From Deltaproteobacteria bacterium (GTDB taxonomy: Bacteria; Myxococcota; JACRCW01): a DNA stretch of 64,000 nucleotides. Position numbers and translations under genes: made by a program. Location of the stretch: positions 1 through 64,000 of the forward strand of contig JACRCW010000085.1 of assembly GCA_016218805.1 (NCBI GenBank), in the 5' to 3' direction. Positions 23,915 through 42,324 of the stretch are shown in pieces. The notes under the pieces are model-generated. The model was not told where the DNA came from, ran no database searches, and saw only the letters and a list, made by a program, of their open reading frames with translations. Position 1 is the stretch's first letter. The number at the start of each line of letters is the position of its first letter.

Positions 23915-24703
23915 TCAGGACCGCGGTCGCGTCGCCTCAATCGTCGCCGACGCGACGAATTGCTCCGCGCCCGAACCCGGGAACCACTCCGCAATGAACG
24001 CGCGGCTCTCCTCCTTCACGTCGATCCGGATGTCCGTGAACCCCGCGCGGGTGAGCAGCGCGGTGAGTTCATCCACACCGGCGGCGCCGGCGATGCACCC
24101 GGTCAGCGCCGTGGTGTCCTGCGCCAGCGACGGGGGGAGCGGCGACGTGCGCACCACGTCGCTGATGGCCAACCGTCCTCCAGGCTTCAACACGCGGAAC
24201 GCGTCGCGGAACACGGCGGCCTTGTCCGGGCTGAGGTTGATGACGCAGTTGGAGAGGATGACGTCCACGCTCGCGTCCGCCACCGGGAGATGCTCAATCT
24301 CGCCAAGCCGGAACTGCACGTTGGTGGCCCCCAGGGAGGCAGCGTTTGCCCGTGCCTTGGACACCATCTCCGGCGTCATGTCCACGCCAATGACGGACCC
24401 GGTGGACCCCACGCGCTTCGCGGCGAGGAAGCAGTCAAACCCGCCGCCAGCGCCCAGGTCCAGCACGGTCTCGCCTTCGCGCAGCGCAGCGATGGCCTGG
24501 GGGTTGCCGCAGCCCAGTCCCATGTTTGCGCCGTCAGGAACCGCGGCCAGGTCCTCCGGCGAGTAACCAATCGCCAGACTCGCCTGTGGCGCCGGCGCCG
24601 CACAGCATCCGGGTGCGCAACAGGAACCCCCGGCTGACGTTGCCACCTCTGCGTACTGCGCGCGCACCGCAGCGCGCACCTCGTCCTTGTTGGTCCCGTT
24701 CAT
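23915..24703 (-). CDS. arsM: Arsenite S-adenosylmethionine methyltransferase
   Basis: N-terminal CC pairs, GLGCGNP, LDLGAGGGFDC, SNCVINL and GCIAGA. Confidence 0.93.
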   Translation of the reverse strand: MNGTNKDEVRAAVRAQYAEVATSAGGSCCAPGCCAAPAPQASLAIGYSPEDLAAVPDGANMGLGCGNPQAIAALREGETVLDLGAGGGFDCFLAAKRVGSTGSVIGVDMTPEMVSKARANAASLGATNVQFRLGEIEHLPVADASVDVILSNCVINLSPDKAAVFRDAFRVLKPGGRLAISDVVRTSPLPPSLAQDTTALTGCIAGAAGVDELTALLTRAGFTDIRIDVKEESRAFIAEWFPGSGAEQFVASATIEATRPRS

Positions 24704-25119
24704 CAGCGCACCTCCTGTTGGCCAAAGCGTTCAATCAATCCGCGCAGCGTGTCGCGCGCGGTGCGGAATCGCGCGAGCATGTCGTCGCGCGTCAATGATG
24801 GGTCGGTGCTCGCGGGGTCGGGGATGGGCCAGTGCAGCCGCCGCGCCTTCCCCAGGAAGACCGGGCACACCTCCTCTGCGCACAGCGTGATCACCGTGTC
24901 CACGCTGGCCGGGTCAATCTCGTTCACCGACTTGGAACGGTGTGCCGTGAGGTCCACGCCCATCTCGCGCATCACCTCAATGGCCCAGGGGTTCACGCTG
25001 GACGGCGCGCTGCCGGCGCTCTGTACGCGCACGCGGTCACCCCACAACTGGCGCCCCAGTCCCTCCGCCATCTGGCTGCGCGCGGAATTCGCCACGCACA
25101 GGAACAGCACGCTCTTCAT
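24703..25119 (-). CDS. arsC: Thioredoxin-type (LMWP) arsenate reductase
   Basis: [24 protein letters not shown] and HWPIPDP. Confidence 0.93.
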
Positions 25120-26177
25120 GCCGCCTCCGCAAAGAACCGGCGCCGCGCCCACAACGCCACGTGCACCAGGCCAATGAGCGCCGGCACCTCAACGAGCGGT
25201 CCGATCACCGCGGCAAACGCGGCCCCGCTGTGGATGCCGAACGACGACACGGCCACCGCGATGGCGAGTTCAAAGTTGTTGGACGCGGCGGTGAAGGACA
25301 GCGTGGCGGACTGCGGGTAGTCCGCGCCCACGCGGCGGCTCATGAAGAAGGACAGCGCGAACATCAACAGGAAATAGCTGAGCAGCGGCAGCGCAATGCG
25401 GAGCACGTCCAGCGGCAACTGCACGATGGTCCCGCCCTTCAGGGAGAACATCACCACGATGGTGAACAGCAGCGACACCAGCGTGACCGGCGAGATGCGC
25501 GGCACAAAGCGCTGCTCGTACCACTCCACGCCCTTGCGGGAGACCAGCACCCGCCGCGTGAGGAACCCCGAGGCAAAAGGGATGCCCAGGTAGATGGCCA
25601 CGCTCTGGGCGATCTCACCGATGCTGACGTCAACAACCGTCCCCTGCAGCCCGAGCCAGCCCGGCAGCAGCGTGGCGAAGAAGTATGCGTAGACGGAGAA
25701 GAACAGCACCTGGAAGATGGAATTGAACGCAACCAGACCGGCGCAGTACTCCGTGTCGCCCTTGGCCAGGTCATTCCACACGATCACCATGGCGATGCAG
25801 CGCGCGAGGCCAATGAGGATGAGGCCCAGCATGTATTCGGGCTTGTCCCGCAGGAACACGACGGACAGCCCGAACATCAGGAACGGGCCGATGACCCAGT
25901 TCTGCACCAGCGACAGCGCCAGCACGCGCTTGTTGCGGAACACCAGCCCCAGCTCCTCGTACCGGACCTTGGCCAGCGGCGGGTACATCATCAGCACCAG
26001 GCCGATGGCGATGGGGACGGACGTGGTGCCCACGCTCATCCGGTTGAGCGCACTGGTGAACCAGGGCGCGACGTACCCGAGCCCGACACCGAGCCCCATG
26101 GCGAGGAAGATCCACACCGTCAGGTAGCGGTCCAGGAACGACAGCTTCCGGGCCACACCCGGGCCTGCAGTGTTCAT
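25116..26177 (-). CDS. acr3: ACR3-family arsenite efflux transporter
   Basis: [28 protein letters not shown] and GPLVEVP. Confidence 0.95.
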
Positions 26178-27928
26178 GCGGTAGCCCCCTGCGGAACCCT
26201 GGTCATCGCTTCACGCGCATCACCGGCGGACCACGGCAACAGCACCAGGCGCGCGCCGTGGGCCATCAGTTCAGCCAGGTGGGGTGCCTCCTGCCGGCGC
26301 CGTGCAGCCAGCACCGGGTCCGTCACCACCAGCGGCGTCAGGCACTGGTTCACCACCCACGCAAAAGGCCGGATTCCCGCGCGCGAAAGATCGCGTTCCA
26401 GCTGCATGGCTTCATGGATGGGCGTGGCCTCCGGGAGGGTGACCAGAAGAACGCAGGTAAAGGTGGCGTCACGCAGGCGCGGCAGCAAGCGCACCACCGC
26501 GTCAGGCGTGCCGCTGGGACGGCGCAGCACCTCGCGGTGGTAGGCTTCCGCGGCATCCAGCAGCAGCAGCGTGTGACCGGTGGGCGCCGTGTCAATGACC
26601 ACCAGGCGGTCCGTTCCCTGTGCCACCGTCTGGGCAAACGCGCGGAATACCGCGATTTCCTCCGTGCACGGGCTGCGCAGGTCCTCTTCCAGCAGCGCCC
26701 TGCCCTGCGCATCCAGCGCCGCCCCCGCCGTGGCGAGAACCTCCTCCGTGTAACGGCGCGTTTCCACCGCGGGGTCAATGCGCTCCACGCGCAGCGTCGG
26801 CGGGCGTTCGCGCGCCGCATCCGCCACGTGCGCCGCGGGATCCGTGGTGGTCAGCGTGACGTCCAGCCCGCGCCGCGCAAGCTCCGTAGCCAGACGCGCC
26901 GCCAGCGTGGTCTTGCCCACGCCGCCCTTGCCCATGGTCATCACCACGCCGCGCCGTCGCGTCGCCAGTTCCTCCACAATGGACTGCACGGGTTCCGCCT
27001 GCGGGGGTTCCGCGCCGCCGCCCGCTGCCGGCACCGGCGCGACCCACGGCGTGCCGATGGCGCGCAACGCGTCAACACCGACGAGCCCGAAGGGCAGCAG
27101 CGGCACGTCCACGCGCGGAATGCCGCGGAGTCCAGCGGGGATCTCGGCCAGCGCGCGGCGGCCGCGCTCCTCAAGGGACCGGGCGACGGGGTCACTGGCA
27201 TCCTGCGCGTTGAACACGCCATTGACGATCAGGCGCACGCTGCCAATGCCCTGCTCGGAGAGTTCGGCGCGTGTGCGCTCGGCCTCGGACAGCGACGACC
27301 GCTCCGGTCTTGCCACCAGGATGATGGTGGTCTGGGCCGCGTCACGCAGCGTCATGCGTGACGCCGCGTAGGACGCCCGCTGCGCCTGCAGCCCGGTGAG
27401 CGGCCCCAGGCAGGACGTCCCCCCAACATTGGTGTCTATGAAGCTGCTCCACGCGGCGGGCAGTTCCAGCAGGCGCAGCGTGTGACCCGTCGGCGCCGTG
27501 TCAAAGATGACATGGTCGTACGGGGTGGTGGCTCCGCGGTCCCCCAGCAGACGGGAGAACTCGTCAAATGCGGCGATTTCCACCGTGCACGCACCGGAGA
27601 GCTGTTCCTCCATGCTGCCAATTGCCGTGGCGGGCAGGACGCCGCGGTACGGCGCCACAACGCGCTCGCGGTAGTCCTGTGCCGCGCGGACCGGATCGAT
27701 GTTGAGCGCGTGGAGGCATTCAACGCCCGGCACGGGCGCGGGCGTCCCCGTCAACGCCACCCCCAGCACCTCGTCAAGGTTGGACGCGGGATCCGTGCTC
27801 ACCAGCAGCGTGCGCCGCCCCGCGTCCGCCAGGCCAATGGCCGTGGCACACGCGGCGGACGTCTTCCCCACCCCGCCCTTTCCCGTGAAGAACAGGATGC
27901 GCGTGGGGTTGTGAACCAGTGCAACCAC
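26174..27928 (-). CDS. arsA: Arsenical pump-driving ATPase
   Basis: Two GKGGVGKT P-loops, two DTAPTGH motifs and three metalloid-binding Cys (GACT, SCLG, SPCT). Confidence 0.96.
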
Positions 27929-27943
27929 GTTGCCTCCCGCTTT

Positions 27944-28558
27944 TCAGCAGCAGCCGCCCTTGGCGGGGTCCGCGGGTCCGCAGCATGCCGCGCTGGCGCT
28001 CTCCGCCGGCGCCACCGCCAGCGGTGCGGCCTGCCGGCGCAGGTAGCGGTCCGCAAGCTGGAGCATCGCCGCGGCGGGTGCTTCCTTGACGCTCTGCGCC
28101 GTCATGACCGCGCGGAACATGTCGTCGTTGGACACGCCCAGCTTGCGCGCCTTGTCGTAATGGAACTTGAAGCACGGCTCGCAGTTGGACGCGACCGCTG
28201 CGCCGATGGCAACCAACTCCTCAACGGCCTCCGTGTAGAGGCCGGCTGCGGGCGCACCCAACCCGGCCCAGGCCGCCAACTCATCACGGCTGGGGTACAC
28301 GCCGCTGCACTTCACCGTCCCATCCACCTCCACCAGCGGGAGCGCCGCTTCCCCTTTGGCCTCCAGCGCCGCCTTCACCGCCGCGTGGCCGGCAAATGCG
28401 GCCGGCTGCTGCGCCAGGTTGAACCGTTCCACGCCCACACCGCGGCCCTTCAGCCAGTCCAGGTCCGCCGCGAACCGCGCGAGCTGCGGGTCCACGGAGG
28501 GTCCGCAGACCCCGGTTGAACAGCACATGGCAGGATCAAACACGCGCACCGCGGTCAT
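27944..28558 (-). CDS. arsD: Arsenite metallochaperone ArsD fused to a CMD/AhpD-like domain
   Basis: FDPAMCCSTGVCGP...YPSR, followed by ELVAIGAAVASNCEPCFKFH and terminal CC pairs. Confidence 0.9.
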   Translation of the reverse strand: MTAVRVFDPAMCCSTGVCGPSVDPQLARFAADLDWLKGRGVGVERFNLAQQPAAFAGHAAVKAALEAKGEAALPLVEVDGTVKCSGVYPSRDELAAWAGLGAPAAGLYTEAVEELVAIGAAVASNCEPCFKFHYDKARKLGVSNDDMFRAVMTAQSVKEAPAAAMLQLADRYLRRQAAPLAVAPAESASAACCGPADPAKGGCC

Positions 28559-28610
28559 GGATGGGCACCCTTTCCTTCAGCGTTGGTTGACGATGACTGC
28601 TGGAATGCGT

Positions 28611-28955
28611 TCACAGGCCCCCCACCAGCGCCTTGAAGCGACGCAACGTCCGCGGCTCAATGCAGTAGCAAACGCGCGGGCCGTCCACGTCACCGCGCAC
28701 CAGGCCGCTCTCCTTCAGTACCTTGAGGTGCTGGGACACGGTGGACTGGGCCAGAGGCAACTCGTCAACGATGTCGCCACAGATGCACGCGTTCTTCCGC
28801 GCCAGCAGGCGTAGGATCTGCACCCGCACCGGGTGCCCCACCGCCTTGCACAGCGCGGCCAGCTCGTCATCCGCGCCGGAGCCCTCAATGGGCCGCAGGT
28901 CCGCCGCCGCATCCTCGGGTGGACAGGACAACACGGCAACGCGGCGCTTCTTCAT
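28611..28955 (-). CDS. arsR: ArsR/SmtB-family repressor
   Basis: [27 protein letters not shown] and CYC. Confidence 0.92.
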
Positions 28956-29012: not shown

Positions 29013-30320
29013 TCACATCAGCTTGAACAGCTGCACATCCTCGTCGCGTCCCTTGACCTTCACCGGTGGCAGCGCCTCACCGGGGTGGTGTGCGCGGACG
29101 TCGCGGTACACCTGCTCGGTGACCAGCAGCGACGAGTTGAACTCCTTGTTGAGCCCTTCCACGCGCGACGCCAGGTTCACCGCGTCACCGATGACCGTGT
29201 ATTCCTTGCGCTCCGCCGACCCGATGGTCCCCACGACGGCCAGCCCGGAATGGATGCCAATGCCCACCCGGGTCGCCGGAATGTCGCCGCGGCTGTTCTG
29301 GGCCGTGAGTTCGGTGAGGATTTCGCGCGCGGCGTTGGCAGCGTTGATGTTGTCCCTGCCCTCGGAGAACGGCGCGCCAAAGATCGCCATGAAACCATCT
29401 CCCAGGAACTTGTTGATGACGCCGGAGTTCCGGTTCACGCACTCCACCATGAAGCCGAACAGGCGGTTGAGGTAGGCCACCACCTCGTCGGGGGACTTCT
29501 TTTCAGAGAAGCGGGTGAAACTGCGGATGTCCAGGAACATGACGGTGACCGCCCGCAACTCGGTGGCTGCGGAGACGTCACTGCGCAGCAGGCGGTCCAC
29601 CACCGCGGGGGAGATGTACTGGCCAAACGTGCTGACAATGCGGGCGCGCTCGTCAAGCAGCGCAATGGTGGCATCAATGCGCTTGCGGAGCTCCACCGCC
29701 ACAATTCCCGCGATAACCCCGCTGGCCAACAGCACCACCGCCTTACCCATGCTGAAGGGCAGCCAATAGTCGGCGGCCGCGTCCACATTCCGCCCCGCCA
29801 GGAAATGCAGCGAGAGCCCCGCGTATTCCGCGGCCGCCAGCGCCGCGGTGAACAGCGACAACGGGAAACTCAGCCGCAGGGTGGAGAGGATGATGAGCAC
29901 GCCGTAGAAGAGCAGCGCGGGGGAATTCAGCGCCAGCGCCGGATCATACGTCTGCGCAAAGATGGCCAGCACCACCGACACGCAGCTGACCTCAAACAGG
30001 GTGTTGCCGTAGCGCGGCGGGTCCGGAAGCATGACGCCCCGCCGCTGCACCACGTCCAACAGCTTGAGGATGACCAGCTCATACGCCAGGACCAGCAAGC
30101 AGAAGCCGGCCAGCAGCGTGGTGGGCGGGAACACCCAGCCCTCCCCGTGCGGGCGGAACCCCAGGGCGATGGCGCCGCTGAACGCGACACTCACCAGGAA
30201 CAGCACCGCGTAGATGCCCAGCATCACCAGCACCCGGGTCCGCTCGCTGCGGATGATCTCCGGGTTCATGTCCCGTTCCAGGGGTGGCGCGTCCTCAACG
30301 CGCCGGATGAAGCGGTTCAT
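29013..30320 (-). CDS. Membrane-bound class III adenylate/guanylate cyclase
   Basis: About six TM helices, FLDIRSFT, KFLGDG and YTVIGDAVNLASR. AGGAG RBS favours a start near 30320. Confidence 0.92.
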   Translation of the reverse strand: MNRFIRRVEDAPPLERDMNPEIIRSERTRVLVMLGIYAVLFLVSVAFSGAIALGFRPHGEGWVFPPTTLLAGFCLLVLAYELVILKLLDVVQRRGVMLPDPPRYGNTLFEVSCVSVVLAIFAQTYDPALALNSPALLFYGVLIILSTLRLSFPLSLFTAALAAAEYAGLSLHFLAGRNVDAAADYWLPFSMGKAVVLLASGVIAGIVAVELRKRIDATIALLDERARIVSTFGQYISPAVVDRLLRSDVSAATELRAVTVMFLDIRSFTRFSEKKSPDEVVAYLNRLFGFMVECVNRNSGVINKFLGDGFMAIFGAPFSEGRDNINAANAAREILTELTAQNSRGDIPATRVGIGIHSGLAVVGTIGSAERKEYTVIGDAVNLASRVEGLNKEFNSSLLVTEQVYRDVRAHHPGEALPPVKVKGRDEDVQLFKLM

Positions 30321-30472
30321 CGTCGTCATCCTCCTGTCGGGCCACCCTGATTCCACCGGGAAAAGCGGTGGCGGCACGCCGCAGGTCGTTCGCGGCACGC
30401 AACGCAGGGTGCGCGTCCTTGGGGGCGCGGACAACCTCGTGACCCCACCGGGCACGGGGTCGCCGCATCGCG

Positions 30473-30919
30473 TCACGGGGTCGTGACGGTCACGACGATG
30501 GGATCACCGGCCCGGGTCACGCCGCCCCGGACCACGCGGGCGAACAGGCCCTCGCGCGGCATGATGCAATCACCGGTGGCTTTCCGGATGGGGCAACCCG
30601 CGTTGTGGCACTCCTTGCCCACCTGCGTGATCTCCAGCAGCACCTGTTCACCCAGTTGCAACTGGTCACCGGGCTTCAACTCCGCGGTCCCCAACCCGCG
30701 CGTGATGACGTTCTCCGCGAATGCGCCGTGACTCAGCGCGGGCAGGAGCGCCTTCACGCGGTCGATCGATTCGCCGGCCAGCAATGAGACCTGACGGTGC
30801 CAGGCGCCGGCGTGGGCATCATTCTCCACGCCCCATTGGGCGCCGAGGGTCACCTCAGCCTGTTCCTTCTTGACCACGCCCGTCCTCCAGCTGGTGCAGA
30901 CGGCTTCCACGTGCGCCAT
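30473..30919 (-). CDS. MOSC domain protein
   Basis: DAHAG.WHRQVSLL, GAFAEN, TQVGKECH and CIMPREG. Confidence 0.9.
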   Translation of the reverse strand: MAHVEAVCTSWRTGVVKKEQAEVTLGAQWGVENDAHAGAWHRQVSLLAGESIDRVKALLPALSHGAFAENVITRGLGTAELKPGDQLQLGEQVLLEITQVGKECHNAGCPIRKATGDCIMPREGLFARVVRGGVTRAGDPIVVTVTTP

Positions 30920-30931
30920 GGTGGTCCGCCC

Positions 30932-31573
30932 TCAGGATGCGGCGTTGGCCAAGGGGACGCCCATGCTGCCCGCATCCAGCTCAACCACTTCACCGAGCGC
31001 GACGGCCACGCCACGCATGAACGGCGTGTGCGCGGCCCGCGCCAGGTCCGCCGAGAACAACGGAACCCACGAGGCAACGTGTGCCGCGAAGAACTCCCGT
31101 TCCGTCTCCACGCTCTCACCCTGCCCGCTGAGGCGCCGGTCCACCAGCGTGGCCACAAACCCCAACTCCCGCGCCACGTGGTCCGGCGGGCACTGCGTCA
31201 TGTCGTCGTAACCCAGGCCGGACGCCACGTACGCGGCCAGGACATCCCGGGCCGGCCCCTGCATCACCAGCCGGTCGGGCGAGCGGTACACGCTCTCCCA
31301 TGGAGGCGCGGCCAGCTTGCCGGGCCCCTGGAACAACCGCTGGTGGTCACGCTGCACGTCCTCGGCGCCGGGAGCATCCAAGGCCGTGCGCATGGCGTGC
31401 AGTCCGTGCAGGGGCCGGCCCAGGTGCCTCTCCACCGCGTCGGCCAGCGTGGCCAGCACCTGCTCGCGCCGCAGGGCCTCCAGCGTGTCTGCGTCTGGCG
31501 CTTCGGACAGCAGGGCGCCCAGCAGGAGATACAGGTCACGCCGGATCGGATCGGGAAGGCCCACGGAACCCAT
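30932..31573 (-). CDS. TorD/DmsD-family maturation chaperone
   Basis: RLFQGP, APPWESVY and PPDHVARELGF. Confidence 0.9.
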   Translation of the reverse strand: MGSVGLPDPIRRDLYLLLGALLSEAPDADTLEALRREQVLATLADAVERHLGRPLHGLHAMRTALDAPGAEDVQRDHQRLFQGPGKLAAPPWESVYRSPDRLVMQGPARDVLAAYVASGLGYDDMTQCPPDHVARELGFVATLVDRRLSGQGESVETEREFFAAHVASWVPLFSADLARAAHTPFMRGVAVALGEVVELDAGSMGVPLANAAS

Positions 31574-31582
31574 GAATGCTCC

Positions 31583-32197
31583 TCACAAGCCGCGCTGCGG
31601 CGTGAACTTGACGACGGGGCGCGTCCGGGACGGATCCCCGATGTCCTGCAGGCCCGCGGGTGCGGTGGGCCCGTTGGTGTGGCACGCGGCCGCGTCATAT
31701 GAATCCGCCGCGTTGAACGTCAGCGCGTAGGAACTGCAAGTCAGCACGCACGCCGGCATCTTCTGGCTGTCCTGCAGGTTGTTGTTGGTCAGGCGGTGGT
31801 GGCAGCCGTTGCACTTGTCCATCAGGCCGCTGTCTGGGTCGTACTGCGGCGCGCCGTATGGGCACGCGGACGCGCAACGGCGGCAGCCAACGCAGTGCTG
31901 CTGCTGCGGAATGACCAGGCCCGTGGTGGCGTCCTTGTAGATCGCCGTGCCGCTGCTGTTGTTGATGTTGGCATGGTCCGACTGCGGACACGCCTGGATG
32001 CATGCGGGGTTCTCACAGTGCATGCACGCCAGGGTGACAAAGCGGCGGTACGGCTTGCCGTTGTTGACACCATCCTGAATCACAACGCGCCGCCGGCGCA
32101 CGCCGGTGGGCAGTTTCCACTCCTGCTTGCATGCGCCCTCACACGCGCGGCAGCCAATGCAGTTGTCCAGGTTGATGCGCCATCCGAACTGAGCCAT
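31583..32197 (-). CDS. Four-cluster Fe-S subunit (DmsB/PsrB/ArrB type)
   Basis: CIGCRACEGAC, CMHCENPAC..AC, CVGCRRCASACP and KCNGC...PACVLTC. Confidence 0.93.
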   Translation of the reverse strand: MAQFGWRINLDNCIGCRACEGACKQEWKLPTGVRRRRVVIQDGVNNGKPYRRFVTLACMHCENPACIQACPQSDHANINNSSGTAIYKDATTGLVIPQQQHCVGCRRCASACPYGAPQYDPDSGLMDKCNGCHHRLTNNNLQDSQKMPACVLTCSSYALTFNAADSYDAAACHTNGPTAPAGLQDIGDPSRTRPVVKFTPQRGL

Positions 32198-32232: not shown

Positions 32233-35200
32233 TCAGGCTTCAAACTTGTAGATACGGCAGGGGACTTCCTTGTGAACGGCCTGGCCGGAGTGGATTTCCG
32301 CCTTGCCCGGAAGGATCCACCCGTCGTGCGCACCCTTGCCCACGGCCAGCTTTCCCAGCGCCCAGTGCCCAAAGCCGCGGTGGAAACCCACCGTGGCAAT
32401 GCCCGGGGTCAGCGGGTCGGCGGAACTCGCCAGCTCGTTGTGGATGCCCTCCGTGCGGTGGATGCGGACGCGGATGCGGCTGACCGGCGTCTCCACCCAC
32501 GCCTGGTCGTTCTCCGCGAGTCCCAGCTTGTCCGCCAGGCGGGGGTGCACGTACAGCTTGCTCTCCGACTTCATCTCCATCAGGTACGCGTTGTTGAACG
32601 TCCGCGTGTGCGTGTGCTCCACCTCCTTCCACGAAGTGAAGAACAGCGGGTGCGTGGCCGTGGGTCCGTCTTCAACGGGCAGGTAGTACGGCAGCGGGTG
32701 GTAGCGGAGATCCCCGCTGACCGAGGCACCCGCCGGGTACTTGGTGGCGCCCGCCTTGAAATAGTCGTCAAACGTCTTGGACCAGAACTGCGCAAACAGC
32801 GTCTCCGTGCCGAAGCCGGTGAAGAAGTTTGTCCCGTCCGCGGGCGGGGAAACGTCGGTAGCGCCCGGCGGAGCAATACCGAGGTTCACGCTGGTGCCCT
32901 TGCCGCGGACCACGTAGCGCTGGTCACCGCCGTAGGTGACCGCCACCACGTCCATGACGGCGCCGCGGAAGCCGGTGCCGGCGCCGAGGCTTGCGTCCAG
33001 CGTGATGGCGGCGTTGGCCGCCGGCGTGGCTGACGCGACGGTGCCGATGAGCACGCCACCCGCGCCGGCCGTCGTACCGGTGCGGACCTCGTTGGTGGTC
33101 CCGTTCACGTACACGTGCATCCACGCCGAGCTGTATTTGTTGAGCGCTGAATAGGTGGTCGCGTACTTGTGATAGAAGGTGCCACCGCGTGACGCGCCCG
33201 TCTCAATCCACACGCCCTTCTGCTTCAGCGTGGGCCAGTCAACGTTGTTGGTGTAGCCGGCGCGGGCCGTGTCCCATTCCTTCTTGTTGAGGTTCTCGTC
33301 CACGTCACGGAAGTTGGCCGCGTCAAAACCCGTGAAGCCCATGTGACGGCCAAGGTCCAGGAAGAACTGTGCCTCGCTGCGCCCGCCAATCCATGACGGC
33401 ACAACCGGCTGCCGCAGGCCCGTGGTGAAGAAGGTGACCCAGCTGGCGTTGAAGTCAAACCGCTCCAGGTAGCTGGACCCCGGAATCAGGATGTCCGCGT
33501 ATTGCGCGGTTTCGCTGAGGTGCGTGTCAACGCAGACAATGAAGTCCATGGCCTCCAGCGCCTGGATGTTGCGCTGGGTGTTGGGCGTGGACATCAGCAG
33601 GTTCTGGAAGACAATGACGGCCGCCTTCATCGGGTAGGGGAACCCCAGGTGGTCGCGCTGTTCCAGCATGCGTTCGCGCATCTCCACGTAGATGCCGGAG
33701 CCATGCGAAAACGCGTACTTCTTGTGGAACTTGGTTCCCGCCGGGACGGTCGTGCCCGCCGTCCACGTTGTGCCGGTGGTGTCCACCAGCGTGCGGTTGG
33801 ACACCGCGGGTTCCGGCAGCGTGATGTCGTCCCGGCCGTCGGGCCGCCACCCGTCGTACTTGATGGTCCCGTTGGCGTTCTTCCAGGACGCGTGCGCGGA
33901 CAAGCGCGCGGGGCCGGAGCGGTTGGGCCGCAGCAGCGTGCCCGGGCGGTCCACGCCGCCCAACAGGAGGTTCAGACAGTTGATGGCGCGCCCGCCCTGG
34001 GTCGCGTTGGTGTGGTGGCCGCCGCCGGACCAGGTGTCAATGCAGATGCGCTTGCCGGCCGCAAACGCATCGCCCAACTCGCGTGCAAGCGCCGTGATGC
34101 GCGCCGCGGCCACACCGGTCTGTGCCTCGCCCCACGCGGCGTTCTTGGGCTGCGCGTCATACGTGCCGTCACCGTCCAGGTACTTCTTGTACTCGGTGAA
34201 GCCCACCGCCCACTGGTCCATCCAGGCCTTGTCAATCTTGGTGCCGGTGCCGGCGTCGTAGTCCACCAGTTCCTTGGCAATGGCCAGCGCGAGCGCGCCG
34301 TCCGTACCGGGCCGCAGCGGCACCCAGTCATCCGCGCGTGACGCCGTGGTGTTGAAGACCGGGTCCACATAGATGAACTTGAAGTTCCGGTCCCGGCGGC
34401 CGCGGGAGAAGATGGCCGCCAGGTGGATCCACTTCAGCGCGGACAGGAAGTTCCACCCCCACACAAACAGGACGTCGCAGTTCTCCATGTCCGCGAGCGG
34501 CCGCTCGTCGCCAATCGTCGCCTTGTAGTGCGCCTTGCGTGACGTGTCGCAGAGGTTGGCGTGGTTGGAATAGTTGGGCGACCCAAACGCGTCACAGAAG
34601 TCCTGTTGCGGGTGCGTGAAGGAGTGGTCCTCGCCAAACCAGACCACGGAGCGCGCCCCGTACTGCTGCTTGAGCGTGGTGAGGCGCCGCGAGGTCTCTT
34701 CAATGGCCTGGTCCCAGCTGATGGGAACAAACTGCCCCGAACCGCGCGGACCCACGCGCTTCATCGGCGTCTTCACGCGGTCCGGGTCATACAGCGACTT
34801 CATCCCGGAGTTGCCCTTGCAGCACAGGCGGCCCACGTCCGTGGCGGCCACCGCGGAGAACGTTCCCGTGGGCGCAGCGTCGCGGCCGGAGGCAGCAAAC
34901 CCGCCGGCCAGGCGCGTCTTGGGCGCGTCCACATTGGCCACGTTGTTCGGGTTCACGGCGTCCGTGAGCGCGTTGGGGTTGGCGGTCGTGGGCTCAATCT
35001 TCTCCACAATGCCGCCGCGCACGTACGCCCAGATACCGCACTGGCCACCGCACATGTTGCAGCATGACGGGATCCACCTGCCGCCAAGGTAGTCGTTGAG
35101 CCGTGCCGTCTCCGCGGCGGACAGGCTGCGGAAGGGGACGGGGAAGATGGTGGTCAGCGCCAACCCACCCACACCCGCGCCCGTCCACTTGAGGAAGCTC

Positions 35201-35268
35201 CGGCGGGAAAGGTCGCCCTGCCCGGCCGTCATGGTGGTGGTCTCGAGATCCTTGCGCGTGTTGCTCAT
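32233..35268 (-). CDS. Tat-exported Mo/W-bisPGD oxidoreductase catalytic subunit, Psr/Phs/Arr-like branch
   Basis: SRRSFLK Tat motif, CNMCGGQC...CCKG FS0 site, YDPDRVKTPMKRVG, PGTDGALAL, SETAQYAD and a probable Mo-ligand Cys in SNHANLCD. Confidence 0.9.
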   Translation of the reverse strand: MSNTRKDLETTTMTAGQGDLSRRSFLKWTGAGVGGLALTTIFPVPFRSLSAAETARLNDYLGGRWIPSCCNMCGGQCGIWAYVRGGIVEKIEPTTANPNALTDAVNPNNVANVDAPKTRLAGGFAASGRDAAPTGTFSAVAATDVGRLCCKGNSGMKSLYDPDRVKTPMKRVGPRGSGQFVPISWDQAIEETSRRLTTLKQQYGARSVVWFGEDHSFTHPQQDFCDAFGSPNYSNHANLCDTSRKAHYKATIGDERPLADMENCDVLFVWGWNFLSALKWIHLAAIFSRGRRDRNFKFIYVDPVFNTTASRADDWVPLRPGTDGALALAIAKELVDYDAGTGTKIDKAWMDQWAVGFTEYKKYLDGDGTYDAQPKNAAWGEAQTGVAAARITALARELGDAFAAGKRICIDTWSGGGHHTNATQGGRAINCLNLLLGGVDRPGTLLRPNRSGPARLSAHASWKNANGTIKYDGWRPDGRDDITLPEPAVSNRTLVDTTGTTWTAGTTVPAGTKFHKKYAFSHGSGIYVEMRERMLEQRDHLGFPYPMKAAVIVFQNLLMSTPNTQRNIQALEAMDFIVCVDTHLSETAQYADILIPGSSYLERFDFNASWVTFFTTGLRQPVVPSWIGGRSEAQFFLDLGRHMGFTGFDAANFRDVDENLNKKEWDTARAGYTNNVDWPTLKQKGVWIETGASRGGTFYHKYATTYSALNKYSSAWMHVYVNGTTNEVRTGTTAGAGGVLIGTVASATPAANAAITLDASLGAGTGFRGAVMDVVAVTYGGDQRYVVRGKGTSVNLGIAPPGATDVSPPADGTNFFTGFGTETLFAQFWSKTFDDYFKAGATKYPAGASVSGDLRYHPLPYYLPVEDGPTATHPLFFTSWKEVEHTHTRTFNNAYLMEMKSESKLYVHPRLADKLGLAENDQAWVETPVSRIRVRIHRTEGIHNELASSADPLTPGIATVGFHRGFGHWALGKLAVGKGAHDGWILPGKAEIHSGQAVHKEVPCRIYKFEA

Positions 35269-35289: not shown

Positions 35290-36565
<1,276 letters not shown>

Positions 36566-36645
36566 TAACGCGGTGTTGTTACTTTTCCGAAACACCCGCG
36601 CGCGCGCCCCGGCATCCCTGAGCGTTTTTCCGTCGGGAACCGCTC

Positions 36646-37710
36646 TTGCAGGGCGCCGCCACCGTGTCCGCCGCTGGCTGCTCCCCGCCGCTCCCCCGCC
36701 TCGCCGTTGTGCCGGATGCGTGCGCGCCGGGATTGCCGCTCACTGACAGTGTGGGCCGTTCCGTCCGCTACCTGCGCCTGGGCGTGACGGACCGCTGTGA
36801 CATGGCGTGCGTCTACTGCATGCCGGAGGGCTACCGTGGAACTCCGCGGCGCGAGCAACTCTCGGTTGACGAGGTGGTGCGCATCGTCCGGGTGTTCTAC
36901 GCCGTGGGCGTGCGCACCGTGCGCCTGACAGGAGGAGAGCCGTTGGTGCGGCGGGACGTGGTCCATCTCGTCAGCGCCATCGCCACAGCGGTTCCCGGCC
37001 TGGACCTGGCGCTCACCACCAATGGCGCCCTGCTGGCGCGGTTGGCGCGCCCGCTGCGGGACGCCGGCCTGCAGCGCCTCAACATCAGCGTGGACAGCGT
37101 GCACGCGGACTGTTTCCACCAGCTCACGCGCACGGGTGACTGGGCCGCCGTCCGCGCAGGGATTGATGCGGCGCGGGATGCCGGTTTCACGGAGATCAAG
37201 ACCAACACCGTGGTGCTTCGTGACCACAACCTGGACCAGGTCCCGGAGATTGCCCGCTGGGCCCATGACCGTGGGCTCACGCCGCGCTTCATTGAGTTGA
37301 TGCCGCTGGGCGAAGGCGCTTCCCTGATGAACCAGCACGTCCCCTGGACGGAGATCCGCGCGCGGCTGGGCGCGCTGCTGCAGGACGGGCCCACCGAGTC
37401 CCCGCGGCAGCGCGGACCGGCGTTCTACCTTCCCGTGCGTGCCGGCCAGGGGCGCGTCGGGTTCATCACCGCGGTCAGCAACCACTTCTGCAACACCTGC
37501 GATCGCGTGCGCGTCTCCGCACGCGGCGAGTTGCGCGCGTGCCTGGCCAACCCGCATGGCGTCTCGCTCCGCGACGCTGTCCGGCAGGGCGCCACCGACG
37601 CGCAGTTGCTGCACCTGCTGCGCGGCGTCCTGGCCGGCAAGGACCGTCACGCATTCACCACGGGCCCCCGGGCCGCAGCCGCGGTGGTGATGACCGGCAT
37701 CGGCGGATGA
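36646..37710 (+). CDS. moaA: GTP 3',8-cyclase
   Basis: VTDRCDMACVYCM, RLTGGEP, HFCNTCDRVR...C and C-terminal IGG. Start approximate. Confidence 0.95.
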   Translation: MQGAATVSAAGCSPPLPRLAVVPDACAPGLPLTDSVGRSVRYLRLGVTDRCDMACVYCMPEGYRGTPRREQLSVDEVVRIVRVFYAVGVRTVRLTGGEPLVRRDVVHLVSAIATAVPGLDLALTTNGALLARLARPLRDAGLQRLNISVDSVHADCFHQLTRTGDWAAVRAGIDAARDAGFTEIKTNTVVLRDHNLDQVPEIARWAHDRGLTPRFIELMPLGEGASLMNQHVPWTEIRARLGALLQDGPTESPRQRGPAFYLPVRAGQGRVGFITAVSNHFCNTCDRVRVSARGELRACLANPHGVSLRDAVRQGATDAQLLHLLRGVLAGKDRHAFTTGPRAAAAVVMTGIGG

Positions 37711-38672
37711 GGGCGGCGCGGGGGTCGTTGTCGCGCGTGGGCCGCCACGCTACTGCGCGGACCATGCACCGCGCCTCGGTCATGCCGGCTGGAATGCTGC
37801 TGTTGGCGGCGTGCTGGTCACCGCCGTATCGCGAGGTGCCCGTTGCGTCCCCCTCGGCGCGCAACAGTGGAACGGATGCATCAACGGCCGCCGGCGGTGT
37901 GCTGCGTTTTTCCGTGGCGGCGCGCCAGTCCCCGCAGTCCACTTTTGCGTCCTATTCCCCGTTGGTTGAGCGCGTGGCCGAGCTGGTGGGTGCCCGCGCT
38001 GACCTGGTGCAGCGGCGCACCTACCGCGAAGTGAATGAACTGCTGGCGCGCGGAGAGCTGGACGCCGCCATGATCTGCACGGGTGCCTGGTTGGACCTGC
38101 AGCGCCGGTGGCCCGGAAGGGCGGAGCCCCTCGTCGTCGCCGTGATGCGCGGGAGGATCACCTACAACTCGTTCCTCATCGTTCCCACGGACAGCCCCGT
38201 CCGGTCGCTGGGGGACCTGCAGGGGAAACAGTTCGCGTACACGGATGAACTGTCCCTGACCGGTCACGCCTGGCCCACGCACGCGCTGCACGCGCTCGGG
38301 CGCGATCCCGCGCGCACTTTCTCGTCGGTGTATTTCACGCAATCCCATGATCGGTCCATCCGCGCGGTGGCGCAGGGGCTGTTTGACGGCGCCGCGGTGG
38401 ACAGCCTGGTGTACCGCGCGCTCGTGGCCGCGGAGCCAAACCTGGCACGTGCCACGCGCGTGGTGGAGACCTCGCCGCCGTTTGGGATGCCGCCGGTTGT
38501 GGTGTCCACGCGCCTCCCGCCGGAGGCAAGGGCCCGCCTGCGCGAAGCATTTCTGGGCCTGCACGAGCATCCCGACGCGATCCCGACGCTCGCCGAACTG
38601 GGCATTGAACAGTACGTGGTCCCGCCGCCGGACCTGTACAACACCGCCGCCGCCGTGCTGGCCGACCGGTGA
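37707..38672 (+). CDS. PhnD-like periplasmic oxyanion-binding lipoprotein (AioX/ArxX-like)
   Basis: Lipobox LAAC, QRRTYREVN, AMICTG, SHDRSI.AVA.G..DGAAVDS and PPVVV. Translationally coupled to moaA and to the kinase. Confidence 0.82.
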   Translation: MRAARGSLSRVGRHATARTMHRASVMPAGMLLLAACWSPPYREVPVASPSARNSGTDASTAAGGVLRFSVAARQSPQSTFASYSPLVERVAELVGARADLVQRRTYREVNELLARGELDAAMICTGAWLDLQRRWPGRAEPLVVAVMRGRITYNSFLIVPTDSPVRSLGDLQGKQFAYTDELSLTGHAWPTHALHALGRDPARTFSSVYFTQSHDRSIRAVAQGLFDGAAVDSLVYRALVAAEPNLARATRVVETSPPFGMPPVVVSTRLPPEARARLREAFLGLHEHPDAIPTLAELGIEQYVVPPPDLYNTAAAVLADR

Positions 38673-40096
38673 TGTTGCGCTCACCGCCGCGGTTCCGCCT
38701 GTGGATGCAGCTTGCTGCGTTTGCGGCCGTGGGCGTGACGCTGCTGCACGGCATGCACCTGGTGGTGGCTGACGCGGTGACCCGGGACGCACTGCTGCAG
38801 GCACAGCAGGCACGCGCCCGGGGCATGGCCCGGCTGGTGGCCCGCCAGGCGGCTGACGCGGTCCTCACCCATGACTGGGCCTCGCTGCAGGACGCGGTGG
38901 TGGGCGCCGCCTCCGCCGGCGAAGTGACGTACTGCTTTGCGGTCCACGACGGGAAGGTGCTGGCCAGCTCCATTCCCGGCGAGCGGGTGGCCGCGCTGGA
39001 GGCGGCCCGGCCCGCCGGGACCGCGCTTGGGGAAACGCTGATTCTGGTGGAGGGTGCCACGCGGTTCCTGGACGTGGCCGAGCCCATTCTCGACGGCCGG
39101 CGCGGCGTGGTGCGGATCGGCGTGGACCTGGAGGTGCTCGCGCGCACTTCGGCGGACCTGGCCGGGCGCCTGGGGATGGTTGCTGTGCTGATGGCGCTGG
39201 TGGGCGTGCTGGCGGCGCTGCTGGTGGGCCGGCGGGTGGCCCGCCCCGTGGGGGAGTTGCTGGACGCCGCCGACGCGTTTGACGCCGCCCTGCCACCGCG
39301 GCTGCTCCCGCACCGCGGGAGCGACGAGATCACCGAGCTGACGGCGCGCTTCAACGAGATGATGGTGCGCCTCACGGATGCGCACCGCGAACAGGCCGCG
39401 GCCCGCGCGCGCGCAGCGGAGACCGAACGGATGGTTGCGCTCGGGTCGCTGGTGACCGGCGTGGCGCACGAGGTCAACAACCCGCTGGCGGGCCTGAAGA
39501 TGTGCCACCACCGCCTGGCGCGCGCGGACCTGCCCCCCGCGCAGCACGCGGAATACCTGGACCTCATGCGCGAGGCGCTGGACCGCATTGAGAGCGTGGT
39601 GCAGGGCCTGCTGGAATTCGGGCGGCCACGCGCGCCGCGCCTGCAGAAGACCGCCGTGGCGGACGTCATTCACCAATGCGCGCGGCTGGTGACCCCGCTG
39701 TTTCATGACCGCGGCATCCGCCTGCGGCTGATTGTGGATGGACTGCCTGACGACGCCACGGTCCGGGCGGACGGACGGCAGTTGGGTCAAGGGCTGCTCA
39801 ACCTGGCGCTCAACGCCGCCTACGTGACCACCGCCGGCGGCGAGGTCCGCATCCGCGCACGGGTGGAGGACACGCGCTTTGGCATTGCCGTGGAGGATGA
39901 CGGGCCCGGTGTCCCCGTTGAACTGCGCGACCGCATCATGGACCCGTTCTTCTCCACCAAGCCGGAGGGCCAGGGCTCAGGGCTGGGCCTGCCGGTGACG
40001 CGCGCCATCGCCGTCGCGCATGACGGGGAACTGGCACTGTCCTATCCCGCGCACGGCGGCACGGTGGCCGTGCTGTGGTTGCCCCGACGTCCCTGA
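38669..40096 (+). CDS. HAMP sensor histidine kinase (NtrB type)
   Basis: Two TM helices, HAMP, AHEVNNPL, DDGPG, PFFSTK and GSGLGL. Confidence 0.92.
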   Translation: MMLRSPPRFRLWMQLAAFAAVGVTLLHGMHLVVADAVTRDALLQAQQARARGMARLVARQAADAVLTHDWASLQDAVVGAASAGEVTYCFAVHDGKVLASSIPGERVAALEAARPAGTALGETLILVEGATRFLDVAEPILDGRRGVVRIGVDLEVLARTSADLAGRLGMVAVLMALVGVLAALLVGRRVARPVGELLDAADAFDAALPPRLLPHRGSDEITELTARFNEMMVRLTDAHREQAAARARAAETERMVALGSLVTGVAHEVNNPLAGLKMCHHRLARADLPPAQHAEYLDLMREALDRIESVVQGLLEFGRPRAPRLQKTAVADVIHQCARLVTPLFHDRGIRLRLIVDGLPDDATVRADGRQLGQGLLNLALNAAYVTTAGGEVRIRARVEDTRFGIAVEDDGPGVPVELRDRIMDPFFSTKPEGQGSGLGLPVTRAIAVAHDGELALSYPAHGGTVAVLWLPRRP

Positions 40097-40111: not shown

Positions 40112-41485
40112 TCAGCGGTCCGGCGGGCCCTTGAGACGCTGCCACAGGCTCTTGCGTGAAATACCCAGCGCCTGCGCCGCGCGCCCCTTGTGCCCCTCCA
40201 CCTTGGTGAGCACCCGCTGGATGTACTCCTTCTCAAACCGCTCCACCGCCTGCCCCAGCGGCTCCACCTGCCCGGTTTCCGTCGGCACGGCCAGCTCGTG
40301 CGCGGGTCCCTGCACCACCATGGCCCGCGGAAGATGTTCCACGCGGATGCCCCCGCCGCGGGCCAGCGCCACCGCTCGTTCCAGCGCATGGATCAATTCG
40401 CGGACATTCCCCGGGTAGTCGTACGTCACCAGCGCGGCAACGGCGCCCGGGTCCAGTTCAGGCACGGCGCGGCCCAGCCTCCGCGCAATGCTCTCCAGAA
40501 TCTCGGCCACCAGCGCGGGGATGTCCGCGCGCCGCTCCCGCACCGGCGGCATGCGGATATCCACAACGTTGAGGCGGTAGAAGAGATCCTGGCGGAACGT
40601 GCCGGCCTCCACCGCCTCCTGCAGATTGCGGTTGGTGGCCGCCAGGATGCGGACGTCCACGGTGCGGGACGTGGAACTGCCCACGGGCTCGAACGTGCCC
40701 GATTCCAGCGCACGCAGCAGCTTGGCCTGCTGTGACACGGGCAGCTCGCCCACCTCGTCCAGAAACAGGATGCCACCGTCCGCCACGCCAAAGCGGCCTT
40801 CGCGCCGCCGTTCCGCACCGGTGAATGCCCCCTTTTCATGGCCAAACAGCTCGCTCTCCAACAGGTTCTCCGGAATCGCGGCACAGTTGACGGCGACAAA
40901 CGGCTTCTCCGCCCGGTGACTCGCCTGGTGGATCATGTGCGCGCATACCTCTTTGCCGGTGCCCGTCTCGCCGGTGATCAGCACGCTCACGTCGGACACG
41001 GCCGCCGCGTCAATGCGGTCCAGCAACAACCGCGTGGCCGGGGAGTCGCCGCGGATGGCGCCGGTGGCGGCGCCCGGACCGCGGGCGGCCTGCTCCATCT
41101 GGGCGCTCAGTTCGCGCTCACGGCGGACGCGCCCCAGGCGCAGGAGCAATTCCTCCATTTCAAACGGCTTGACAACGTAGTCGCGCGCGCCGGCGCGCAT
41201 CACCTCCACCGCGTCCTTGTAGTCCGCGTACGCGGTCATCAGGACCACCGCCAGTCCGGGGTCCGCTTCACGCAGCCGCCGCATCAGCGCAATGCCATCC
41301 AGCCCGGGCAGACGCACGTCACACAGGACGATATCGAACGACTCGCGCTGCGCCGCGGCCCAACCGGCGTTGCCGTCCGCGCAGGCGTCCACCTGGTAGC
41401 CCGCGTCCACCAGCGCATCACGCAGGGTGACGCGGACCACGCGGTCATCCTCCACCAGGAGCAACCGCGTAGGCGCCGACGTCAC
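40112..41485 (-). CDS. Sigma-54-dependent response regulator (NtrC family)
   Basis: REC domain (VEDD, CDVRLP), GETGTGKE, GAFTGA and Fis HTH. GTG start overlaps the upstream stop. Confidence 0.93.
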   Translation of the reverse strand: MTSAPTRLLLVEDDRVVRVTLRDALVDAGYQVDACADGNAGWAAAQRESFDIVLCDVRLPGLDGIALMRRLREADPGLAVVLMTAYADYKDAVEVMRAGARDYVVKPFEMEELLLRLGRVRRERELSAQMEQAARGPGAATGAIRGDSPATRLLLDRIDAAAVSDVSVLITGETGTGKEVCAHMIHQASHRAEKPFVAVNCAAIPENLLESELFGHEKGAFTGAERRREGRFGVADGGILFLDEVGELPVSQQAKLLRALESGTFEPVGSSTSRTVDVRILAATNRNLQEAVEAGTFRQDLFYRLNVVDIRMPPVRERRADIPALVAEILESIARRLGRAVPELDPGAVAALVTYDYPGNVRELIHALERAVALARGGGIRVEHLPRAMVVQGPAHELAVPTETGQVEPLGQAVERFEKEYIQRVLTKVEGHKGRAAQALGISRKSLWQRLKGPPDR

Positions 41486-42324
41486 GGCCGCGCCTCCCCG
41501 CCCTCCTTCTTGCGGGCGATGTACGCCAGGATCTCCGCGGCGGTTTCCTCCACCGCCTTGCCGCTGACGTTGAGCACCGGCCATTGCGGGTGCGCGGCAA
41601 AGAACTCCTCCACCCACTTGAGTTCGCGCACCACGTTCTCCTTGAGACCGTACGCGCTGTCCGCGGGCATCCCCAGGTGGCGCAGGCGTTCCTGGCGGAT
41701 GCGCGTGAGCGTGCCCGGGTCAATGGTGAGCGCAATGACCTTCCCCTGGTCCACCTCAAACAATTCGCGCGGCGCAGGGACGTCCGGGACCAGCGGGACG
41801 TTGGCCACCTTGTAGCCCTTATGCGCCAGGTAGGTGGACAGCGGCGTCTTGCTGGTGCGGGACACGCCCACCAGCACCAGGTCCGCCTTGGAGAGGTTGC
41901 GCGGCTCCTGCCCGTCGTCGTTCTTGACCGCGAATTCCACCGCTTCAATACGGCGGAAATACTCCTCGTTCAGCACCATGGTGATGCCGGCCTTCATGAC
42001 CGGCGGGTGCCCAAAGAACGTGGACAGGCGCACCATCATGGCGCCAATGACGTCAATGGAAATGACGCCCATGGAGTCCGCGTAGTCCTGCATGGTGCTG
42101 CGCAGTTCCAGGTCCGCCAGCGTGTAGGAGATGAACGCTTTCTCGTCGCGCGCCCGCTCCACAATGTTCCGCACCTCCGCGGCGGTGCGCACGCGGTGGA
42201 AACCGCGGAGCCTGGGTTTGGCCTCCGGGAATTGCAGCAGCGCCGCTGAGGTGACCTTCTCCACCGTGTCACCGGTGGCGTCGGAAACCAGGAAGATCTG
42301 CGGTGGGTCCTGCGTCGTCGTCAT
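41482..42324 (-). CDS. ppsR: PEP synthase/PPDK regulatory kinase-pyrophosphorylase (DUF299)
   Basis: VSDATGDT, YFRRIEAVEFAVKNDDG and GVSRTSKTP. Confidence 0.92.
   Translation of the reverse strand: MTTTQDPPQIFLVSDATGDTVEKVTSAALLQFPEAKPRLRGFHRVRTAAEVRNIVERARDEKAFISYTLADLELRSTMQDYADSMGVISIDVIGAMMVRLSTFFGHPPVMKAGITMVLNEEYFRRIEAVEFAVKNDDGQEPRNLSKADLVLVGVSRTSKTPLSTYLAHKGYKVANVPLVPDVPAPRELFEVDQGKVIALTIDPGTLTRIRQERLRHLGMPADSAYGLKENVVRELKWVEEFFAAHPQWPVLNVSGKAVEETAAEILAYIARKKEGGEARP

Follow-up and report, generated by a model that had tools for sequence, protein, structure and literature searches.

Which oxyanion is turned over by a molybdoenzyme whose active-site motifs match neither the arsenate reductase ArrA nor the arsenite oxidase ArxA? 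The question was raised by a 64,000-nucleotide stretch of DNA (hereafter the window; contig JACRCW010000085.1 of assembly GCA_016218805.1, from a Deltaproteobacteria bacterium of the Myxococcota), in which a gene on the minus strand at 32233..35268 encodes a catalytic subunit, here called A. We examined A, its operon and its homologues. The best reading is that A belongs to a periplasmic arsenic oxyanion oxidoreductase, possibly an exported arsenate reductase fed by menaquinol (probability about 0.45). With the same reserve, its homologues may form a further family of respiratory arsenic reductases that is independent of the others, with a charge-rewired site (EDH, HSNLCDxxRK and an invariant Arg) and two modes of wiring. 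Gene transfer would have carried it across approximately 20 phyla, which comprise groundwater bacteria, mostly uncultured, and some archaea. This type of chemistry is known. As far as searched, neither the family nor its pocket or cytochrome wiring has been described, and no account of the family was found in the open literature, with subscription papers largely outside the search.

Active site and phylogenetic position of subunit A

The open reading frame (ORF) starts with ATG and encodes 1011 amino acids (aa), the length given in an initial annotation of the window. Molybdopterin, Fe4S4 and dinucleotide-binding domains (Pfam) place A in the molybdenum-bis(pyranopterin guanine dinucleotide) (Mo-bisPGD; DMSO reductase/MopB) superfamily. 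Its twin-arginine signal scored 21.9 bits with TAT_signal, just short of the cut-off of 22.7. Cys70, Cys73, Cys77 and Cys149 correspond to the [4Fe-4S] cluster FS0, and the predicted ligand of Mo-bisPGD is Cys240, which aligns with ArrA Cys193 and the Cys of PsrA.

The initial annotation had noted WFGEDHSF where ArrA has (R/K)GRY, as defined in PMC6549141, and an unfamiliar sequence where ArrA and ArxA have a motif of the SHS-x-ICAE type. WFGEDHSF occupies residues 210-217 of A, and SNHANLCDTSRK occupies residues 234-245. Both correspondences were borne out by an alignment with ArrA of PDB 6CZ7 and a MAFFT alignment with proteins bearing RGRY and GRGW, in which GEDH (212-215) and HANLCDTSRK (236-245) were placed opposite RGRY and HSSVCAEAHK of ArrA, respectively. 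In the ArrA numbering of PMC10654088 and PMC13685797, His189, Cys193 and Lys198 are retained in the alignment as His236, Cys240 and Lys245. The position of Ser190 is Ala in A and Ser in 196 of the 240 homologues listed. ArrA residues 163-166 (RGRY) are replaced by GEDH, His197 by Arg244 and Tyr210 by Arg256, which is invariant. A therefore carries GEDH instead of (R/K)GRY; it also lacks the XGRGWG motif and lies outside the clade of ArxA, as judged from two plasmid ArxA references. Half of the arsenate contacts of ArrA thus appear to be kept in the pocket, and the rest appear to have been rebuilt with acidic and basic residues. Such a half-kept, recharged pocket fits an oxyanion substrate and does not fix which one.

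Profile scores of A stayed below every NCBIfam cut-off concerned: 131 of 1600 bits for ArrA (NF041714), 281 of 694 for PhsA and 81 of 1750 for TtrA. A motif-true ArrA scored 1139 bits on the ArrA model, itself under 1600. A tree (IQ-TREE, LG+G4, 36 rows, 684 columns) was then inferred from 16 chosen family members, four RGRY-defined ArrA, two plasmid ArxA, Salmonella PhsA with three Psr-like proteins, seven unassigned proteins and three outgroups; TtrA, SrrA and AnrA are absent from it, and TtrA and SrdA were compared by profile score only. The family formed a single clade (100/100) outside ArrA, ArxA and the Psr/Phs clade (98/99), with 24-28% identity to the others. The deep order is open, and a second tree agreed. 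Hence the earlier view that A is neither a canonical ArrA or ArxA nor an obvious PsrA was upheld by its low scores, by the missing RGRY and GRGW motifs and by its position, which nests in none of the ArrA, ArxA and PsrA/PhsA groups. We regard the family as a probable new clade of the Cys-ligated Psr/Arr branch, set apart from ArrA, ArxA and PsrA/PhsA, with AnrA and SrrA outside the comparison. NaoA, which clusters with NapA and has the Rieske partner NaoC (PMC11521347), was also considered as an identity of A and rejected; the NapA model gave 75 bits, and no Rieske gene was present among the ORFs of the operon.

The inserts of A, three in number, are mostly lineage-specific. Between the third and fourth Cys of FS0 (Cys77 to Cys149) the spacer is 71 aa, so that the long spacer described initially is real and its size of about 60 residues is not; the same spacer measures 27 aa in each of PhsA, ArrA and ArxA and 41-69 aa in the 116 full-length family members outside P0001-P0004. 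The HVYV...DGTNFF stretch near the C-terminus, put down as a Thr/Gly/Ala-rich insert of about 100 aa, is indeed 99 aa long and 45% Thr+Gly+Ala, compared with 30% across A. Only about 57-60 aa of it are extra relative to most family members, and this extra part is common to the six closest homologues, P0002-P0007. A further insert of about 35 aa, overlooked initially, lies at about residues 480-515. P0001 is the longest among the 240 homologues listed, whose median is 822 aa. Inserts were ruled out as a family-defining trait, as they are absent from most members, and are probably beside the point. Accordingly, of the two oddities first ascribed to this gene, both exist, the atypical motifs being family-wide and the large insertions belonging to its lineage.

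A single-sequence search gave 799 matches at E<=1e-30 among 7995 scored candidates, of which 120 were listed, and a profile search added 120 more, making up the 240 homologues used for motif counts. The 1302 matches of the profile search were not taken as the family size because ArrA and Psr proteins can pass its threshold. In the first motif, EDHSF was found in 182 homologues, EDHCF in 32, EDASF and EDHSL in six each, EEPSF in two and ENHSF in one, with 11 unmatched. HxxxCDxxR[KR] was present in 238 of the 240, ending in RK in 236. Trp210, Glu213, His236, Cys240, Asp241, Arg244 and Arg256 were invariant in an alignment of 112 rows. With the family profile, full-length members scored about 1100-1270 bits and non-members less than 440. 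These motifs are signatures of a large, widespread and unnamed family, as read from the sequences, and are not peculiar to the A gene.

Approximately 20 phylum-level names were found among 80 GTDB loci (of 94 found), and 79 of the record titles were those of metagenome-assembled genomes (MAGs). Occurrence was patchy: members were found in 5 of 401 genomes of the same phylum (source genome included), 6 of 81 genomes of the family of a Tepidiforma MAG and 13 of 251 genomes from the phylum to which a Nitrospirota MAG belongs. In the last sample there were at least seven motif-checked ArrA, a lower bound because only 30 loci were fetched. No member was found in the 40 nearest-kin genomes, where the three matches were proteins of other clades (33-35% identical), or on the plasmids searched, where the top matches were PhsA at 26%. 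A search with the ArrA profile gave nothing above the cut-off in 301 genomes of the same phylum and 401 others; the control also gave none anywhere, so that this search carries no information. Matches in the ESM Atlas were unnamed molybdopterin clusters only. Most of the window was found in three DNA runs of one groundwater study, of which one is a possible source of it, and no RNA run containing it was listed in the sequencing-run search.

Electron wiring, sensor and neighbouring arsenic genes

The operon runs on the minus strand in the order triheme cytochrome c (35290..36402), A, B (31583..32197), TorD/DmsD-type chaperone (30932..31573) and MOSC-domain protein (30473..30919). B is DmsB/NrfC-like, with 16 invariant Cys that would hold four [4Fe-4S] clusters, and no twin-arginine signal was seen in it. 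The chaperone and the MOSC protein were assigned by domain matches, and the latter may act in handling the Mo cofactor. Divergent from the operon, moaA lies on the plus strand at 36646..37710 (MoaA, 332 bits against a cut-off of 284). The cytochrome has a lipobox-like Cys (by eye), a collagen-like stalk and a C-terminal domain with three CXXCH; the stalk and the lipobox-like Cys also occur in Myxococcota-type loci. Regarding its spare His, two distal His were invariant in 8 of 8 sequences and a third was present at one of two positions, a pattern like that of the low-potential bis-His c7 proteins.

Family loci, 80 from GTDB and 80 from metagenomes, were sorted by gene order: 54 had the A-B order, 82 had B first and 24 were not assigned. 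NrfD was found in none of the 54 A-B loci, and a cytochrome with at least three CXXCH stood directly upstream in 40 of the 42 whose upstream sequence was long enough. In the B-first loci, NrfD was found in 65 of 82. This alternation of NrfD and cytochrome across the 160 loci suggests that the cytochrome substitutes for the quinol-oxidising anchor, and the triheme cytochrome is thus the likely electron partner in place of NrfD.

Some features of these loci may be recorded here. One genome carried two family paralogues (G281:C19 and G281:C69; L268 and L269), one with NrfD and arsC, the other without NrfD and near arsM. Porin-like outer-membrane genes recurred (L029, L043, L070 and others), with a Porin_O_P cluster at 10 loci and two clusters without a Pfam match at 20 and 5 loci. 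TauE permeases were near the enzyme in seven family loci.

Beyond moaA, the window encodes a putative X-S-R sensor system: X, a periplasmic sensor of the AioX/ArrX family (37539..38672, plus strand), S, a sensor histidine kinase identified by domain match (38669..40096, plus strand), and R, a sigma-54 response regulator (40112..41617, minus strand, with a probable true start near 41480), which converges on S in the same way as in loci L001 and L004. The arsenic pocket of AioX consists of Tyr88, Cys106, Tyr131, Ser161, Ser163, His192 and Asp210 (PMC5908839). The pocket of X reads YCYSTHD against YCYSSHD of AioX, that is, six of seven residues are identical including the Cys, which places X in the AioX/ArxX/ArrX family; the Thr at the Ser163 position is also found in ArxX of skB26. 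In a tree, X grouped with the X proteins of three RGRY-ArrA loci (100/100), apart from AioX and ArxX. Its loop was also on the ArrX side: the TPxFL loop of arsenite sensors was missing in 30 of 34 family-linked X proteins and present in four. ArrX binds arsenate, and AioX and ArxX bind arsenite (PMC5908839). In L043:1-1900, X is apparently fused to a second periplasmic binding domain.

Between the operon and moaA, we found two GTT-N10-AAC boxes at 36534-36549 and 36578-36593 (36534..36593), 44 bp apart, which match the AioR consensus (PMC5335332). In L001, L002 and L004, an equivalent pair, 43-44 bp apart, precedes the operon. Pairs spaced by 40-48 bp numbered three genome-wide against 1.6 expected; at this near-chance frequency, only position and recurrence carry weight. 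A candidate sigma-54 -24/-12 site with one mismatch (36452..36466, minus strand) is weak alone and not significant, as the window has 12 matches of this type against 23 expected by chance, and no strict match was found in L001, L002 or L004.

Downstream of the operon, 1.5 kb from the MOSC gene, begins a complete ars operon of arsR, arsD, arsA, acr3, arsC and arsM (23915..28955, minus strand). ArsD is fused to a C-terminal CMD/AhpD domain (27944-28558 of the window); stand-alone CMD genes were near 6 of 80 family loci. The ars genes are separated from the enzyme operon by a membrane adenylate/guanylate cyclase-like gene (29013-30476; by eye, with one weak NCBIfam match).

X or an ars gene was present at 23 of the 80 GTDB loci and 27 of the 80 metagenome loci, 50 of 160 in all. 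When restricted to loci of 12 kb or more, the counts were 20 of 57 and 14 of 25, respectively. In controls, X or an ars gene was seen at 1 of 21 Psr-like loci (one weak ArsC match) and 3 of 7 ArrA loci. The X sensor itself was found at none of the 21 Psr-like controls, and in the family it occurs with both architectures and in several phyla. The ArsP label of one neighbourhood query was inferred. Judged by the neighbourhood, As and Sb remain as substrates in preference to Se and S, and this sharpens the proposal of the initial annotation that A represents an uncharacterised As, Sb, Se or S oxyanion oxidoreductase clade, which is itself supported.

Arsenate reduction and its alternatives

The host genome, 92% complete, contains menB, NapA, a NiFe hydrogenase, pyruvate:ferredoxin oxidoreductase, a cbb3 oxidase and a second heme-copper oxidase. 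It also has one NrfD complex and 38 ORFs with at least three CXXCH (up to 33); contigs C16, C40, C48, C90 and C110 encode several further multiheme proteins that begin like lipoproteins and contain Gly-X-Y repeats. The only other Pfam molybdopterin matches were NapA and a NuoG-like protein, with no AioA found, and neither futalosine nor cytochrome bd genes were detected in this 92% complete genome. The gene set suggests a facultative, menaquinone-based respirer, in which either direction is possible and reduction is mildly favoured. Arr has been linked to menaquinone hosts (PMC13685797).

The mechanism that we favour takes the clade, motifs, operon, sensor pocket residues and boxes from sequence and fills in the other steps by inference. 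A and B would be exported together by the twin-arginine translocation system. The lipid-anchored, collagen-stalked cytochrome would take the role that NrfD plays as anchor in the other half of the family, so that electrons may pass from menaquinol through the membrane-tethered triheme cytochrome to B, FS0 and Mo. The oxyanion would be held by His236, Lys245, Arg244 and Arg256, and protons could be transferred by Glu213, Asp214, His215 and Asp241, replacing Arg165-Tyr166 of ArrA. Arsenate would be reduced to arsenite outside the cytoplasm, and the arsenite may be cleared by the adjoining ars operon. As for control, X would bind the oxyanion, S would phosphorylate R, and R on the paired boxes would open a sigma-54 promoter.

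Several observations weigh against arsenate reduction. RGRY, which has been associated with the binding of arsenate and with direction, is lost, with Arg165 replaced by Asp. An approximately unbiased (AU) test on 21 rows rejected a grouping of the family with ArrA alone (p 0.004); it did not reject the family with Arr/Arx (p 0.085), a grouping with Psr/Phs had a support of 18, and no sister was chosen. X and ars genes were unseen at 110 of the 160 family loci, many of which are on short contigs. Within Nitrospirota the contrast was small (3/11 vs 1/20), and the control loci are related to one another. The box pair was missing in the close relative L266 and in 28 other X-bearing loci, and was thus present in only 3 of 31 with spacing of the 43-44-bp type. 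Four family-linked X proteins have the AioX/ArxX loop, so that loop type may track host taxonomy. Furthermore, the regulators evolved apart from the enzymes, and pocket residues alone do not set specificity (PMC5908839). The host carries two heme-copper oxidases. Some members of the family come from Tepidiforma MAGs, and the cultured relatives of these are strict aerobes.

Some of these points would fit an arsenite oxidase with an Arx-like role, from which electrons would flow to the cytochrome and then either to the cbb3 oxidase or to nitrate reductase. The acidic pocket (Glu213, Asp214 and Asp241) would suit neutral As(OH)3, the host possesses two heme-copper oxidases, one of them cbb3, without a detected AioA, four family-linked X proteins are AioX/ArxX-like, and the divergent XSR layout recalls arx. 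We nevertheless consider oxidation unlikely, since the GRGW motif is missing, X of the window is on the ArrX side and the host is probably menaquinone-based. A cytochrome of the bis-His type is also probably too low in potential for an arsenite oxidase. A further point in favour of an oxidase is that both Arr and Arx can run in reverse in vitro (PMC13685797).

An antimony enzyme appears less probable again, whether from the clade of the antimonate reductase AnrA or as a parallel enzyme for Sb(V)/Sb(III). AnrA is an XSR-regulated enzyme of the Psr/Arr branch. Family loci L043 and L041 have the order X-S-R-B-A, which resembles that of anr, presumably anrXSRBAD; however, the exact order X-S-R-B-A-D also occurs in an unrelated clade (L132), and synteny therefore does not point here. 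The rebuilt pocket could accommodate octahedral Sb(OH)6-, and ars efflux genes handle Sb(III) too (PMC11521347). On the other hand, no Geobacter or Desulfuribacillus name appeared among the 80 GTDB records or the 240 listed proteins, which are partial lists, and AioX, ArxX and ArrX did not bind antimonite (PMC5908839).

The clade containing L132 (G892:C45) and L130 (Azoarcus sp. KH32C plasmid) is a second X-S-R-linked molybdoenzyme clade outside ArrA and ArxA, adjoining ars genes, with a GR-type motif and NHTSxCE. A search with it gave 1937 matches at E<=1e-100, possibly including other clades; neither of the two genus names above was among the matches listed. It is a candidate for AnrA or for ArxA-like proteins of the Methanoperedens type.

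A sulfur or selenium oxyanion reductase (Psr/Phs/Srr-like), captured only sometimes by arsenic islands, would explain why the top library and PDB matches are PhsA/PsrA, why a PsrC-like NrfD anchor occurs at 65 loci and why no arsenic gene was seen at most loci. We give this explanation a low probability: the dedicated X sensor occurs with both architectures and in several phyla as against 0/21 Psr-like controls, the ArrA-type Lys198 context and the EDH motif are missing in Psr/Phs, and grouping with Psr/Phs was unsupported (18). An enzyme for thioarsenate, monomethylarsonate (MMA(V)) or dimethylarsinate (DMA(V)) rather than arsenate would suit the retention of the ArrA-type His/Cys/Lys beside a rebuilt RGRY side and the arsM gene next door, and is very improbable, with arsM near only 4 of 160 loci.

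Relation to known systems and significance

Compared with ArrAB of Shewanella ANA-3 (PDB 6CZ7; arrXSR), the family shares a Tat-exported A, a four-cluster B, TorD, the equivalents of His189/Cys193/Lys198, an ArrX-type sensor, a sigma-54 regulator and anchor-less A-B operons, whereas it differs in GEDH for RGRY, the invariant Arg for Tyr210, 26-28% identity, a separate clade, its own triheme cytochrome and a longer FS0 spacer. The plasmid loci of ArxAB (S. denitrificans skB26 and C. azotoformans ORIO) have the divergent XSR, moaA and ars nearby and the pocket His/Cys in common with the window locus, which lacks GRGW, B2 and NrfD, shows 24-25% identity and differs in the loop type of its sensor. 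PsrA/PhsA (PDB 2VPW; Salmonella PhsA) gave the best profile scores and share the Cys ligand and, with the B-first half of the family, the NrfD anchor; however, A reached only 281 vs 694 bits at about 26% identity, its motifs are different, and the Psr-like controls are without an X sensor.

One published protein belongs to the family by motif (by eye): ASW-6_02220, an unassigned CISM protein of Methanoperedenaceae (PMC7327174, Data Set S1B), with WFGEDHSL and HSNLCDVARK. It is about 790 aa long without the inserts, and the consulted part of that paper proposes neither a function nor an arsenic link; ASW-3 and ASW-6 proteins were placed among clades not near any characterised enzyme. This independent tree, in which a family member was left unassigned, also speaks for the separate position of A (PMC7327174). 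In PMC9582695, a guild of 404 genomes with aio/arx regulatory and auxiliary genes was reported, and one column of its Table 1 gives aioX_like at 100% and values near 40% for arxB1_like and arxC, while arxA and arrA are absent. The family described here might account for this guild.

Microbial arsenate reduction mobilises aquifer arsenic, and surveys of it rely almost wholly on arrA. If the family turns over As or Sb, surveys of the arrA/arxA type would miss a large share of the capacity. Many JGI entries named thiosulfate or polysulfide reductase would then be misassigned. In one phylum sample, the family appears at least as common as ArrA. Finally, the swap from RGRY to GEDH would provide a direct test of the determinants of substrate and direction in this branch of enzymes.

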